Part shown: positions 51 through 7,240 of the stretch, piece by piece
Position numbering within the stretch: position 1 is the first letter of the stretch
Layout of the letters: each line of letters starts with the position of its first letter
Assembly (NCBI GenBank): GCA_012520515.1
Contig: JAAYOD010000027.1
Span: forward strand, 920 to 64,919
Direction of reading: 5' to 3'
DNA from: Clostridiales bacterium
GTDB lineage: Bacteria; Bacillota; Clostridia; Christensenellales; DTU072
Length of the DNA stretch: 64,000 nucleotides
Translations under genes and position numbers: made by a program
Notes under the pieces: generated by a model
Database searches by the model: none
Told to the model about the DNA's origin: nothing
The model's input: the letters and a program-made list of their open reading frames with translations, nothing else

Positions 51-974
51 TTGGCTAAGAAAGATAGAAATCTAGTACAAGATGAATTAGTTGTTTCTGA
101 TGGAAACGCTAGAGGCGGCTCAGGCAAACCGCCCAAATCAGCCAAAAAAAAATACGAGTACATACTGCGAAATAAAAAGTCCAGAAAAGAGCATAAGAGT
201 AAAAGAATTGTTACCGTACTTTCTATTGTCTTAGCTTTATTGCTGGCAGGAGTAGGCATCTTTTACGGTATGTACACGGCAATTAAGCTTAACAGCTTTA
301 AGGTGTATGTAGATAGTCCAGGCAACAAAGTGTTGTCACTGTTCTATGACCAAGATTTATCCTCAGGCTCAGAGACTTTGGAGATATCCGGCCCTAACAT
401 AATGGATAACACCACATTGCCATCTAAGCATAATAAGTCAAATTCTACTGCCATAGAAGACAAGCTAGAGCTTATTGTAACTGCGGAAAACTTTGTCTAT
501 GAGCCACAAGACAGCTTTATAGCGGCATCGTTTTTCCTAAAGAATATAACAGGCGAAGACCAAACCTATATAGAACAACTTAACTTGCGTCACTCTACCA
601 ACAATGTAGAAACCGCAATTAGAGTTATGCTCATTAGAAACTACCAAATATCTGTATACGCAAAGGCAAAGGAAAACGGCGAAAGAGAAAAAGTTGTGCC
701 TTTAGAAAAAGAAATATATACGCCTTTGGAGATTACAAAAAACGAAGATGGCACTGTCAATATAGAGCATGTCGGCGAAGAGCCTTGGATGGCTGAAGAC
801 TTTTATAGCGACGATTATATATTTTACAATGATGACCGCGTAATAAAGCCGGACGAAGTTGTAAGGTATTCTATCATCATTTGGCTTGAAGGCTGGGACG
901 AGGACTGCACAGACGACAAGCTGTATGGCATTATACAAATGGATTTTGCCTTTGTGCAAAAACGCGACAAATAA
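51..974 (+). CDS. Membrane-anchored TasA/camelysin-like paralogue (Lys-rich cytoplasmic N-tail, one TM helix, beta-rich ectodomain)
   Basis: 307-aa ORF with a TTG start 6 nt after AAAGGA. The TM helix VTVLSIVLALLLAGVGIFYGMY is followed by Y-G-M-Y-T-A-I, mirroring TYAWYSAI / TFAWFSAN of the next two genes. The C-terminal IIIWLEGWDEDC...MDFAFVQ aligns by eye with ALVAWLDGV and MYAWYNGV of the paralogues, and with the eG..d...f.f..Q C-terminal block I recall for TasA/camelysin (Peptidase_M73) proteins. No HMM run. Confidence 0.55.
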   Translation: MAKKDRNLVQDELVVSDGNARGGSGKPPKSAKKKYEYILRNKKSRKEHKSKRIVTVLSIVLALLLAGVGIFYGMYTAIKLNSFKVYVDSPGNKVLSLFYDQDLSSGSETLEISGPNIMDNTTLPSKHNKSNSTAIEDKLELIVTAENFVYEPQDSFIAASFFLKNITGEDQTYIEQLNLRHSTNNVETAIRVMLIRNYQISVYAKAKENGEREKVVPLEKEIYTPLEITKNEDGTVNIEHVGEEPWMAEDFYSDDYIFYNDDRVIKPDEVVRYSIIIWLEGWDEDCTDDKLYGIIQMDFAFVQKRDK

Positions 975-995
975 AATAAAAGGTAAAAGGTGAAC

Positions 996-4333: not shown

Positions 4334-6502
4334 ATGGCCGGTAAGCAAATTTATGAAGAGATAATATATCAGATAAACACGCTCTTAAGACAGGGCGAAT
4401 TATATCCAAAATATGTAGATAGTATTTTGGAAGGTGAAAACGATTATAAAATCTCTCAAGTTTATACAAAAAAGAACTATAAAACTGACTGGATTGATAC
4501 AATAGAAGACTGTATTGTATCGCTAGACAACATAGTGCGTAACCCCAGAAAGTTTATAGCTATTGAAGAAGATATCGTTGATATTAGCTTAGCAAAAAGT
4601 ATTTCAGTTGAGAGCGTAAAGCATTTATCACAGCATACCAACCTTATTTCCAGTGTTGATAAACACGGCAATGTTATTCCCTCAAAAATTCTTAACACCA
4701 GTAAAGAAGAGAGTTTTGACATTTATGAAAACCGTTTTATCTACACCCTTTTGTTAAAAATTCGTGACTTTATCGATAGGCGTTTTACCGTTATGAAAAA
4801 CGCGCTAATGCAAAGCGGCGACTTAGGCGTTACCATAGAAAGCGACTTTGCCATCGATAAAAATAAAGTTCAGTATAAGCTAGAATCACAAGCTAGCTTC
4901 CCTTTTGATGCTGTTGTAAAGAGAAGCAACACAGCTCAGCCTACCGATGTTGAGCGTGTGTCGCACATTAGCAGCATTATTAATGACTTCTTATCAAGCC
5001 CTTTTGCTAAAGAAATGCGTAGTTGCGCACTAGTGCGCCCGCCTATTTTGCGTACCAATGTTATTTTGAAAAACCCTGACTTTAAAAAAGCATTGGTGCT
5101 TTGGCAGTTCGTTGAATCCAATGAGAACTTAGAATTTAATGTAGAAACTGTTACAGAAACAGCTCCACTGCCTGATAAACTTAGCGAAAAGTATCGTAGT
5201 TTGATATACCTAAACACCATACTATTGCAAAGTATAGCAAACTCCCGCGAAGAAGGCGAAGCGCTTGACTTAAAGGGCGATGAAAAGAAAGAAGAAGAGC
5301 TGATAGCAGATATTTATGTCACAAAGAACATTGATGACTTTGTGCCCGACGATTTTCCGCTTTTACGCTTGGAAATCAGCGAAATACGCAATATCTATCA
5401 AAAGGTGGCTACCGATAAATCTATAACGCCTGTTCAAATGAGTAAGATGAACGCAGCTATTGATAGAGTTTTGCGCCAATATAGAATAAATAAAGCAAAA
5501 GATGACTCTGAAAAGCAAAAACGCCTAATTGCAGAGCAGCTAGAAGAAGAAGAGCTTGCAAAAAAGCTTGCGCTTAGAGAACAAAAAGACCTAGAGCGCA
5601 AAAAGCGCCAAGAAGAAGCGCGCAGGCGTGTAGAAGCAAAGCGCTTAGAACAAGAGCGTATTGAAGAATTAAAACGCTTAGTTATAGAGCGCAAAGAGAT
5701 GGAGCGCAAGCAAAAAGAAGAGCAAGAGCGCCTAGAGCAAGAGCGCATACGCTTAGAGAAAGAGCAAGCTGAAGAAAGAGCGCGTCAAGAAAAAATTCAA
5801 GCGGAAATTCAAGCAAAGACAGAACACTTTAGAGCGTTAAAAGAAATTGCTATAGAGCGCTTTGAAAAGGCAAAGGCAGAGTTTGACGCTGCAGTTATTG
5901 CATTTAAAGAAGAAGAAAAAGCGCAAGAAGAATCTCGCCGCCAGCATGAGCTTAAGATGGCTGATATGATAAGCGAAGGCATTGCTATCAAGGAAGAAGG
6001 CGAAATGCTAAAACGCCTAGCGCAAGAAAATGAAGAAAGCGCAAGGCGGACAGCGCTAGAAAAAGAAGAAACTCTAGCTAGAATGAAGCAAGAATCTGAC
6101 GATTACTGGAAGAGCGAAAGAGAACTTGCTATTAAGCTTGGCGTAGAAGAAAAACTAGGAGTGCTAAATATTCACGAACGCGCAGAACTTGAGAAGATAC
6201 TTGCTGCAGAACAGCAAAATATGGAAATCCTAAATAAGATGCACGAAGCATTTGAAGCTGGACTTTCTGCAGAAAACATAGAGCATATTGAGCGCTTGGT
6301 ATCTATAGCTCGCCGTTTCCGCACTGAAGAAGAGATAGAAAAGATTCTTAAAGATTATGAAAGGGAAAGAAAGAGAAAGAGAAAGCGCATTTTGCTTGGC
6401 AAGTTAAATATACTAAAGCCTACTGCTTCTAAAAAGAAGAAGAGTAAAAAGAAAAACTTGAAAGGCTTTGCAAAGAAAATGAATAAATCTAAAAGGAAAT
6501 AG
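4334..6502 (+). CDS. McrC-N-terminal (DUF2357)-like protein fused to a long E/R/K-rich coiled-coil or single alpha helix; no nuclease motif recognised
   Basis: 722 aa, with an AAGGA SD 6 nt before the ATG. The N-terminal ~330 aa include NPRKFIAIEEDIV...SFDIYENRFIYTLLLKIRDFIDRR, resembling the conserved D.yENRF block of DUF2357/McrC-NTD. From nt ~5500 to ~6400 the sequence is E/R/K-rich (KKRQEEARRRVEAKRLEQERIEELKRLVIERKEMERKQKEEQERLEQERIRLEKEQAEERARQEK...). The C-tail is Lys-rich (KKKKSKKKNLKGFAKKMNKSKRK). I could not find a PD-(D/E)xK motif. Confidence 0.55.
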   Translation: MAGKQIYEEIIYQINTLLRQGELYPKYVDSILEGENDYKISQVYTKKNYKTDWIDTIEDCIVSLDNIVRNPRKFIAIEEDIVDISLAKSISVESVKHLSQHTNLISSVDKHGNVIPSKILNTSKEESFDIYENRFIYTLLLKIRDFIDRRFTVMKNALMQSGDLGVTIESDFAIDKNKVQYKLESQASFPFDAVVKRSNTAQPTDVERVSHISSIINDFLSSPFAKEMRSCALVRPPILRTNVILKNPDFKKALVLWQFVESNENLEFNVETVTETAPLPDKLSEKYRSLIYLNTILLQSIANSREEGEALDLKGDEKKEEELIADIYVTKNIDDFVPDDFPLLRLEISEIRNIYQKVATDKSITPVQMSKMNAAIDRVLRQYRINKAKDDSEKQKRLIAEQLEEEELAKKLALREQKDLERKKRQEEARRRVEAKRLEQERIEELKRLVIERKEMERKQKEEQERLEQERIRLEKEQAEERARQEKIQAEIQAKTEHFRALKEIAIERFEKAKAEFDAAVIAFKEEEKAQEESRRQHELKMADMISEGIAIKEEGEMLKRLAQENEESARRTALEKEETLARMKQESDDYWKSERELAIKLGVEEKLGVLNIHERAELEKILAAEQQNMEILNKMHEAFEAGLSAENIEHIERLVSIARRFRTEEEIEKILKDYERERKRKRKRILLGKLNILKPTASKKKKSKKKNLKGFAKKMNKSKRK

Positions 6503-7240
6503 GTGATGGTTTTATCTAAAGACAAAAAAAAGAAGCCTATATCTAAAGCTAAAAAAATCGTTAATGGTATTGCTACGGCAATTGTTTTAACGATTTTTGC
6601 TTTGGCTCTTTTTGCAATGATATATCTCTTAACTCAATTTGTTAGCGGCAAAGAACCGGATTTGTTTGGACACCGCTTTTATTTTGTGCTAACTGACAGT
6701 ATGAATCCTACGCTAAAGCCAACTGACATGATTCTTAGTAAGGTCATAAAAGACAGCAACGATATAGATTATGTAAAAAGCTTAGTTTCAGAAGGCGATA
6801 TCGTTACCTATGTAGGATATGTTGGCAACAGTCAAGAGCGCATAACTCATAGAGTAATAAAATCTGACGAACATGACGATGTGTTTTTTTATGATGAAGA
6901 GAAAGAGTCATGGATGCTAATAACAAAAGGCGACAACAATCATAGAGCAGACTCCCCCATTCCTATAAGCGCGCTAGACGCTGTTATGGTAAGAAAAGCT
7001 GCGGTGGTTAGCGCTTTATATAACTTTATTAGCAACAAATCAGGGGGATTGGTGCTAATACTAATACCTATCGCTCTTATACTAGTTCCCTTTATCATTA
7101 GATTTATCATAGTGCTAAAAACGCCGGCTAAAGAAGAGCTTACAGAAGAAGAGCAGAAAAAACGCCAAGAAGAAATAGCAAGAAAAGCTGTGCAAGATTA
7201 TATTGAAGAGCAGAAAAAAAAGAATAATGATACCCCTTAA
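6503..7240 (+). CDS. sipW: SipW-type (ER/archaeal-type) signal peptidase I
   Basis: S26 motifs are present: catalytic Ser in LTDSMNPT (Ser codon 6698-6700), ITHRV (His), KGDNN. An N-terminal TM helix (IATAIVLTIFALALFAMIYLL) and a C-terminal TM helix (LVLILIPIALILVPFIIRFIIVL) plus a charged tail match B. subtilis SipW (SGSMEP / THRI / GDNN). The start (GTG 6503 or ATG 6506) abuts the upstream stop (TAGGTGATG). Confidence 0.85.
   Translation: MMVLSKDKKKKPISKAKKIVNGIATAIVLTIFALALFAMIYLLTQFVSGKEPDLFGHRFYFVLTDSMNPTLKPTDMILSKVIKDSNDIDYVKSLVSEGDIVTYVGYVGNSQERITHRVIKSDEHDDVFFYDEEKESWMLITKGDNNHRADSPIPISALDAVMVRKAAVVSALYNFISNKSGGLVLILIPIALILVPFIIRFIIVLKTPAKEELTEEEQKKRQEEIARKAVQDYIEEQKKKNNDTP

Follow-up and report, generated by a model that had tools for sequence, protein, structure and literature searches.

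In one paragraph, Bell, Makarova, Wolf and Koonin (eLife 2024, PMC11090510) gave the name CoCoPALM to a large clade of McrB-like guanosine triphosphatases (GTPases) of the NxD type, in which NxD is usually followed by E or D, and tied this clade to signal peptidases and "pilus assembly". The class was named and not characterised: its analysis was deferred to a "forthcoming publication", and the paragraph names no substrates and mentions neither TasA, camelysin nor EAL. A full-text search for "CoCoPALM" returned only the naming paper and its preprint, and neither an experimental study of any member nor a later analysis beyond the naming paper was found in the literature. The present analysis concerns a block of six genes (p1 to p6, positions 51-7240) in a stretch of 64,000 nucleotides (nt) from a Clostridiales bacterium (assembly GCA_012520515.1, contig JAAYOD010000027.1, positions 920 to 64,919 of the forward strand), hereafter the window. 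The original prediction for this block was that of an undescribed system, i.e., a TasA/SipW fibre-secretion operon that holds a nuclease-less McrBC-like pair. This architecture has already been named, therefore the system is not undescribed; by its sequence features the locus belongs to the named and experimentally unexplored CoCoPALM class. The following goes beyond what is published: (i) a substrate family; (ii) an anchored paralogue; (iii) two peptidases; (iv) an EAL neighbour; (v) adhesin-bearing variants.

The explanation that we hold to be somewhat probable is that the locus is a conserved chromosomal system of CoCoPALM type, by which anaerobic Clostridia build or anchor a pilus-like surface fibre, the window containing the 3' two-thirds of the cluster. 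As best reading of the GTPase pair (p4 and p5) we infer a GTP-driven or GTP-gated platform for the assembly or the anchoring of this fibre.

Three traits given for CoCoPALM are found here: the NxD motif, the association with signal peptidases, and coiled coils in the homologues of McrB and McrC alike. In architecture, the N-terminal transmembrane (TM) helix and coiled coil of the GTPase match the published definition, and nothing contradicts membership. CoCoNuT systems (CnuB/CnuC) have a GTPase of the same clade and a McrC homologue with coiled coils and without active nuclease. However, they are cytoplasmic and always paired with HEPN or another nuclease, whereas the present locus has a TM anchor, a secretion context and no gene matching a Pfam nuclease family. 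McrBC of E. coli (PDB 6hz4, 6ut6, 7vsr) has in common with p4 the AAA+ GTPase core (Walker A/B, Asn/Asp motif) and with p5 the DUF2357 domain of the partner. By comparison, p4 lacks the DNA-binding N-domain, has NxD and not NxxD and is membrane-anchored, and p5 lacks the PD-(D/E)xK nuclease.

On the side of surface fibres, the tapA-sipW-tasA operon of B. subtilis and the sipW-bsaA-bsaB-bsaC operon of C. perfringens combine, as here, a dedicated SipW with several paralogous secreted proteins, but contain no nucleoside triphosphatase (NTPase). Signal-anchored BsaA subunits have been proposed to polymerise at the membrane, and in C. perfringens proteins of type IV pili may be needed to export BsaC/BsaA (PMC11580942). 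Archaeal threads (Saci_0406, 7pnb) and bundling pili (AbpA, 7ueg) are donor-strand polymers of beta-sandwich subunits processed by signal peptidase I; no McrB-like gene is reported with them, and their assembly machinery is not known (PMC9715654). Type IV pili and type II secretion systems follow the same logic as the one proposed here, i.e., tethered subunits, a dedicated peptidase, a hexameric NTPase (PilB/PilT), major and minor subunits and cyclic di-GMP (c-di-GMP). Nevertheless all components are unrelated, a PilC-like platform is missing here, the nucleotide is probably GTP, and the hydrophobic helix, which is retained after processing by the peptidase of type IV pili, is removed here.

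The six open reading frames (ORFs) are closely packed on one strand (Table 1). In public gene calls on identical contigs p2 starts at 996, p3 at 1861 and p6 at 6506, and with these starts the intergenic gaps are 21, 28, 42, 46 and 3 nt. The start codon of p1 is TTG. The start of p6 abuts the stop of p5 (TAGGTGATG, nt 6500-6508). Terminator-like sites within the block are at chance level (8 vs. 6.8 ± 2.5 in shuffles), and two internal sites on the + strand have no real T-run. The hairpin with U-run located after p6 was equalled in stability by none of 200 shuffles; it is a strong predicted terminator, which closes the transcription unit. The co-orientation, the close spacing, the abutting p5/p6 junction, the absence of an internal terminator and the single terminator after the last gene had all been described in the original prediction and are confirmed.

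The association of these genes is conserved far beyond this strain. More than 8,000 database relatives of p4 exist; the best 120 of them are 61-87% identical over their full length and all come from uncultured Clostridia. A genome scan places p4 relatives in at least 588 species-level genomes. Eighty related loci were compared (Christensenellales, Acutalibacteraceae, Ruminococcus, Oscillospiraceae and a few metagenome-assembled genomes (MAGs) of Bacilli), 37 of which have at least 5 kb on either side of p4 and are called well-flanked. p4 and p5 are adjacent and on one strand in almost all of the 80 loci, and SipW-type, p1-like and p2/p3-type genes lie on the strand of p4 in most of them. The well-flanked loci contain SipW (37/37), p5 (37/37), p1 (33/37), the p2/p3 type (29/37) and an EAL-domain gene (26/37). 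The peptidase gene follows p5 in Christensenellales, and in Oscillospirales it precedes p4: gene order is variable across orders and the association is retained. The conserved families are EAL, p1, p2/p3-type, peptidase, p4 and p5, none of which is annotated as a nuclease. The original prediction had placed the motor pair between the peptidase and its presumed substrates and had taken conserved gene order in related genomes as its own test. The pair is indeed stably embedded, and at the level of the association the arrangement is kept across Christensenellales, Oscillospirales and some Bacilli MAGs.

Identity to the closest relatives is 82-83% for p4, 51-62% for p5, 38-48% for p1, 26-42% for p2/p3 and 33-37% for p6, a rate pattern that fits a conserved cytoplasmic machine with diversifying surface parts. 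Judged by synteny, the cluster is a conserved system of uncultured Clostridia of gut, rumen and digesters and not a strain-specific insertion.

This bears directly on the choice that had been left at the outset between an energised device for fibre assembly or anchoring and an inserted defence module. According to the latter, an McrBC-like antiviral pair would have landed between the subunit genes and sipW. It is true that p4 matches the PADLOC defence candidate PDC-M26A (E 1.5e-37, via the GTPase core) and that, beyond its own family, it is closest to plasmid-encoded GTPases of CoCoNuT type. However: (i) the pair sits with SipW in all well-flanked loci, over several orders; (ii) p4 is the best-conserved gene of the cluster; (iii) flanking repeats around the p4-p5 pair were looked for and none was found, and base composition is flat along the block, with no compositional break; (iv) PADLOC gives no match for p5 up to an E of 1, i.e., the pair does not constitute PDC-M26, and no Pfam nuclease was found in the six window proteins or in 30 p5 relatives; (v) no full-length p4 match occurs in 72,556 plasmids or 50,697 phage records. 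An inserted defence cassette or mobile element is rejected on these grounds and must be regarded as very improbable; the conserved association favours an energised device that assembles or anchors a fibre. This mechanistic idea, put forward in the original prediction, agrees with what the naming paper had guessed.

As had been predicted, p4 is an AAA+ protein of McrB type with a membrane anchor (Table 1). Its N-terminal 200 residues are made of the TM helix, a coiled coil and an acidic linker. The TM helix is directly followed by KRFFKK, therefore the C-terminus is predicted to be cytoplasmic. Coiled coils, in p4 as in p5, were judged by composition and heptad pattern only. p4 matches the NCBIfam equivalog for E. 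coli McrB (E 3e-6) as well as Pfam AAA_5, and the p4 family profile matches E. coli McrB structures (E 3e-7). Walker A, Walker B and NxD do not vary in the family, and N363-N364-D365-D366 is invariant in 11 of its members. p4 is 39% identical (E 3e-61) to a CoCoNuT-type GTPase of 800 amino acids (aa) carried by a Deinococcus plasmid, whose N-terminal 450 residues are coiled-coil-like (68% E/K/R/Q/A/L) and which has a DUF2357 gene downstream. GTANHDETT of this protein aligns without gap on GTANNDDST of p4; p4 therefore has the McrB motif in its NxD form with Asp as next residue, a motif that can also be read as NxxD when p4 is aligned to E. coli McrB alone. By these alignments, CoCoNuT-type GTPases are the nearest relatives of p4 outside its family. 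As a separate observation, a record of the phage collection (MT835511.1, 39890-41104), a human faecal contig labelled "Bacteriophage sp." and without annotation, contains a 38% identical match to p4 residues 140-479; this could be either a phage-borne CoCoNuT-like GTPase or a mis-assigned bacterial contig.

p5 had been described as a coiled-coil protein resembling the N-terminal domain of McrC, and both parts of this description are supported by the match to DUF2357, found in 17 of 30 full-length family members, and by the composition of residues 346-700. Conserved positions extend to about residue 345; the stretch that follows has few Pro or Gly and a family median of 67% E/K/R/Q/A/L. No TM helix is predicted in p5, and its tail is strongly basic (net charge +14 for the last 23 residues). 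No Pfam nuclease family is matched by the full-length p5 relatives or by any window protein of the block, and no D...(D/E)xK pattern precedes the end of conservation. The AlphaFold2 (AF2) model of residues 1-345, of low confidence (pLDDT 66), consists of a helical bundle and hairpins with no alpha/beta nuclease core. That p5 is devoid of nuclease is thus well supported by its sequence, in agreement with the nuclease-less pair originally suspected.

The identification of p6 as a SipW-type signal peptidase also stands. It scores 55.8 bits against TIGR02228, the archaeal-type signal peptidase I (cut-off 51.85), and the three catalytic-type motifs are present (Table 1). With the SipW equivalog it obtains 67.7 bits, below the cut-off of 190 bits, i.e., p6 resembles Bacillus SipW and is not its equivalog. 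TM helices are predicted at residues 25-43 and 186-204, and the charged C-terminal tail (about 40 aa) is probably cytoplasmic. Such tails are a family trait (median 59 aa, 43% charged). The loci contain 110 peptidase genes in total (73 loci), many of them having two.

The three remaining proteins, p1 to p3, are distant paralogues: the p1 family and the p2/p3 (P23/X1) family, the latter including both p2 and p3 in one cluster, are aligned by hhalign with a probability of 99.4% (E 2e-21), and a C-terminal W-EG-D--C motif is common to both. Two short direct repeats at 1434-1507 (p2) and 2317-2390 (p3), with the same spacing of 883 nt, are the apparent DNA trace of the tandem duplication that gave p2 and p3. 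p1 has a long basic cytoplasmic N-tail, one TM helix and an extracellular body predicted as a beta-sandwich. The n-region has a median of 39 aa and is basic in the p1 family vs. 5-10 aa in the cleaved-type paralogues, and the junction of the p1 family differs from LSTAT[FY]AW[FY]S. p1 is the candidate membrane anchor or base subunit. On the contrary, p2, p3 and their relatives have short n-regions and a nearly invariant LSTAT[FY]AW[FY]S junction. Apart from F/Y and S/T exchanges at two positions, the core residues of this junction do not vary, in families whose identity is otherwise 16-41%. The motif is nearly confined to the cluster, since 70 of the 75 motif-bearing ORFs (985 ORFs scanned) are cluster genes. 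The segment directly after the predicted cleavage site is the best-conserved part of these fast-diverging paralogues.

The label of TasA/camelysin-like proteins, given at first to p1-p3, is not upheld. Peptidase_M73 is matched neither by p1-p3 (E up to 1) nor by 30 locus relatives nor by 41 diverse representatives; searches of PDB sequences with the p1-p3 family profiles were empty; hhalign probabilities with TasA are below 1%; and TasA (5of1, 8aur) is not among the best 50 Foldseek matches of p3. Membership in the TasA/camelysin family is not supported on this basis. Profile searches thus support the McrB and McrC N-domain assignments and not the TasA one. p3 scores 15.1 bits with TIGR04088, below the cut-off of 19 bits, and only 3 of 30 relatives match this model at E up to 0.1. 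In a set of 1.84 billion proteins clustered at 50%, the subunit family counts 739 representatives, and no Pfam family was found in 41 sampled representatives. The AF2 model of p3 (pLDDT 77, pTM 0.75) shows an N-terminal helix, a disordered stretch and a beta-sandwich. Its best Foldseek match, weak and non-significant, is the Sulfolobus thread subunit 7pnb (E 0.013, TM-score 0.33), and the TasA-related bundling pilus subunit AbpA (7ueg) is at rank 33 (E 0.1). The likeness to TasA appears limited to the signal junction and a generic beta-sandwich. A non-significant hhalign alignment sets the known TasA cleavage region GGGTWA|AFN (the chain of 8aur starts at A28) on STATFA|WFS of p3. By analogy, the mature N-terminus of p3 would be the conserved WFSANNVVNVSSISF segment.

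The same proteins may be considered without any polymer. p1-p3 and their kin would then be single adhesins or envelope proteins, processed by SipW and forming a surface display or wall layer, while the motor pair would extract, sort or anchor them. The size of subunit-family members, from about 180 to more than 1,800 aa, is in line with this. The Oscillospirales operons run on with further paralogues and with proteins of 1,200-1,800 aa that carry the same signal, or of about 2,500 aa. Operon-distal proteins of 1,200-1,800 aa are seen in Oscillospirales and Bacilli loci (e.g., L026:15679-19572 and L054:16045-21552), several being cut by contig ends. One operon-distal protein that was scanned (locus L054, a Bacilli MAG) contains BspA-type leucine-rich repeats (LRR) and a CBM_2 cellulose-binding module. 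These LRR/CBM proteins are, in the fibre reading, candidate tip adhesins for plant fibre; as adhesin domains they also speak for mere display, as do the carbohydrate-binding jelly rolls among the fold matches of p3 and the fact that polymerisation has no direct evidence. However, the conservation of the post-cleavage segment is more readily understood for a donor strand or assembly signal than for an independent adhesin, and several small paralogues per operon together with an anchored variant resemble a major pilin, minor pilins and an anchor. Display without polymer is for these reasons considered quite unlikely.

The window begins 50 nt ahead of p1, and the extent first proposed, i.e., a six-gene operon, has to be revised. 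Another contig (L085), 99.84% identical to the window over 3,717 nt, reaches 6.6 kb further upstream, where p1 is preceded by three extra co-oriented genes. In order, these encode an EAL-domain protein, a subunit of 353 aa and another peptidase of SipW type (E 6e-17). This upstream layout recurs in the closest relatives, therefore the functional unit comprises, besides the EAL neighbour, no fewer than eight genes in the same orientation, and the cluster is cut by the window. A gap or leader of 418 nt separates the EAL gene from the 353-aa gene, which is followed, before the second sipW, by a GC-rich hairpin (CTCCCCTGCGC...GCGGGGGAG). Such a layout (long leader, trailing hairpin) would be expected for a highly expressed major subunit with partial read-through, for which the 353-aa gene is a candidate. 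Control by a riboswitch or another RNA was considered and dropped: four related loci, with the long gaps ahead of the subunit gene, were scanned against Rfam and gave nothing relevant, and the leader of the 353-aa gene contains no Rfam element.

The EAL protein of this lineage is divergent: read by eye, it has QVL in place of EAL and other substitutions, while the copies from Oscillospirales score strongly (E 1e-46). It is probably catalytically degenerate in this lineage, and may be a c-di-GMP receptor instead of a phosphodiesterase. Such a possible receptor-like character, together with the conservation of the EAL gene as a neighbour, speaks for another explanation, in which p4/p5 would perform no mechanical work and would be a membrane-bound nucleotide-dependent switch or scaffold. 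With c-di-GMP via the EAL protein, it would set when and where SipW processing and display occur, a role likened to that of FlhF/FlhG or of FimX-type regulators. The coiled coil of p5 and the charged cytoplasmic tails of the peptidases also suggest scaffolding, no polytopic platform protein is conserved in the cluster, and a dedicated NTPase is lacking in the characterised SipW-dependent or donor-strand fibres (PMC9715654). However, AAA+ rings of the McrB family are known motors that translocate or hydrolyse under stimulation by McrC, the invariance of Walker A, Walker B and NxD indicates that hydrolysis is apparently maintained, and the extreme conservation of p4 over the whole protein suggests a mechanically constrained machine. 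A pure switch is hence judged unlikely, although less so than display without polymer.

In the favoured explanation, i.e., a platform for surface-fibre assembly or anchoring, Sec would export the subunits, which would stay tethered by their signal helix. Cleavage by SipW at the conserved junction would expose an N-terminal strand (WFSANNVVNVSSISF in p3) that could serve as donor strand, in the manner of TasA, BsaA and archaeal threads, while p1 would remain in the membrane as base or anchor. p4 would form a hexameric ring under the membrane, into which the N-domain of p5 would be inserted as a shaft, like McrC in McrB. GTP hydrolysis would power or gate the hand-over of subunits, the extrusion of the fibre through the wall, or its anchoring. 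p4/p5 would possibly act via the coiled coil of p5 and via the tails that p1 and the peptidases have in the cytoplasm, and the EAL protein would be the route of c-di-GMP control. A stronger version, which is possible but doubtful, is that of a new and independent NTP-driven filament machine, in which a membrane-anchored McrB-type ring with an McrC-type shaft mechanically drives base-growth, extrusion through the Gram-positive wall or retraction of a SipW-processed donor-strand fibre, the subunits of which have no sequence kinship with TasA. If true, it would be the first dedicated motor for a strand-exchange filament dependent on signal peptidase I, and the first role of the McrBC module outside defence and nucleic acids.

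Several points weigh against a fibre platform: (i) the fibre itself has never been seen; (ii) there is no sequence link to TasA (hhalign probability of 0.15-0.5% with the verified TasA sequence), and no Foldseek match of p3 reaches E 1e-3, with TM-scores of about 0.3; (iii) the shaft role of p5 is proposed because of DUF2357 homology and gene adjacency, its model being of low confidence and retrieving nothing with Foldseek, McrC structures included; (iv) TasA, threads and Abp pili have no dedicated NTPase, so a motor is not obviously required; (v) with no polytopic platform protein to link the two, there is no ready explanation of how a GTPase in the cytoplasm would act on a polymer outside the cell; (vi) the N-terminus of p4, whose TM plus coiled-coil architecture plausibly fits an FtsB-like domain, has no Pfam DivIC/FtsB match at E up to 1. 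In this last case, hhalign with E. coli FtsB aligns the GE[ST]xFY[KR]L motif only and without significance, the invariant GESRFYKL of p4 being placed on PGET-FYRL with a probability of only 0.4%.

Table 1. Features of the p1-p6 block (window coordinates) and of its upstream continuation (coordinates of contig L085).
Feature	Position (nt)	Strand	Remarks
p1, bitopic membrane paralogue, 307 aa	51-974	+	P1 family
p1 TM helix, residues 53-71	207-263	+	
p1 C-terminal W-EG-D--C motif	882-908	+	
p2, secreted subunit-like paralogue, 280 aa (278 aa from ATG 996)	990-1832	+	
p2 SipW-style signal motif STATYAWYSA	1080-1109	+	
p3, secreted subunit-like paralogue, 283 aa (271 aa from ATG 1861)	1825-2676	+	
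p3 SipW-style signal motif STATFAWFSA	1930-1959	+	
p4, membrane-anchored McrB-like GTPase, 522 aa	2719-4287	+	CoCoPALM "B" component
p4 TM helix, residues 65-89	2911-2985	+	single strong predicted TM helix
p4 heptad-like helix, residues 104-132	3028-3114	+	
p4 invariant motif GESRFYKLTEVD	3184-3219	+	
p4 Walker A GISGTGKTS	3412-3438	+	
p4 Walker B LDEMNIARVEYYF	3622-3660	+	
p4 NxD+D motif NNDD (signature TANNDDS)	3805-3816	+	
p5, McrC-like partner, 722 aa	4334-6502	+	
p5 DUF2357 (McrC N-domain), residues 58-156	4505-4801	+	Pfam E 8.8e-8, above cut-off
p5 invariant YENRF	4724-4738	+	
p5 coiled-coil-like stretch, residues 346-700	5369-6433	+	69% E/K/R/Q/A/L
p6, archaeal/ER/SipW-type signal peptidase I, 245 aa (244 aa from ATG 6506)	6503-7240	+	
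p6 motif SMNPT	6698-6712	+	catalytic-type
p6 motif THRV	6845-6856	+	catalytic-type
p6 motif GDNN	6929-6940	+	catalytic-type
Intrinsic-terminator-like hairpin and U-run, after p6	7277-7305	+	dG -13.3 kcal/mol, z -3.8
EAL-domain protein, 614 aa, divergent	L085:2293-4137	co-oriented	weak NCBIfam EAL matches
353-aa subunit-family gene, LSTATYAWYTSSN signal, with leader and trailing hairpin	L085:4555-5977	co-oriented	

The operon is convergent with an ORF of 12,034 aa on the - strand (7462-43566), which has a lipoprotein-type signal (LVAC|S). Within its first 10,000 residues Pfam gives a single match, to CarboxypepD_reg and below threshold, and its last 2,034 residues have no NCBIfam match. A functional link with the operon was considered: pieces of this ORF have no tblastn match in the 80 related loci, therefore the giant gene does not belong to the conserved parts of the system. 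A second hairpin, with a perfect stem of 10 bp (7403-7431, TAGCAGCCTA ... TAGGCTGCTA), lies between the convergent genes, 30 nt past the stop of the giant gene. It has no canonical U-tract and may be the terminator of that gene. The giant gene is adjoined by the gene of a 1,116-aa lipoprotein (44678-48028, - strand), whose C-terminal Cys...His...Asp pattern (VCDGLAKAM...GHAWNKVYVDGKWYMVDTTWG) we take to be typical of transglutaminase-like proteases. Between the two large lipoprotein genes are two adjacent short ORFs on the - strand (43812-44234 and 44357-44668; 140 and 103 aa), which may be a single gene split by a frameshift or a stop.

The McrBC core, a textbook restriction motor, is found here in a nuclease-less and membrane-anchored form, recruited into an operon for secretion and surface structures, and this operon is widespread in abundant uncultured Clostridia of gut, rumen and digesters. 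To our knowledge, no dedicated energy source is known for the donor-strand fibres of Gram-positive bacteria and archaea (TasA, BsaA, threads, bundling pili). Should assembly prove to be powered or gated by the GTPase pair, the locus would represent a new pathway of pilus biogenesis and a clear case of exchange of parts between a defence motor and a cell-surface machine. The parts list provides experimental handles, i.e., a substrate family with an invariant junction, an anchored paralogue, two peptidases with long charged tails and an EAL neighbour. The LRR and cellulose-binding variants point to attachment to plant fibre or to the host, which would be of relevance to the ecology of gut and rumen.

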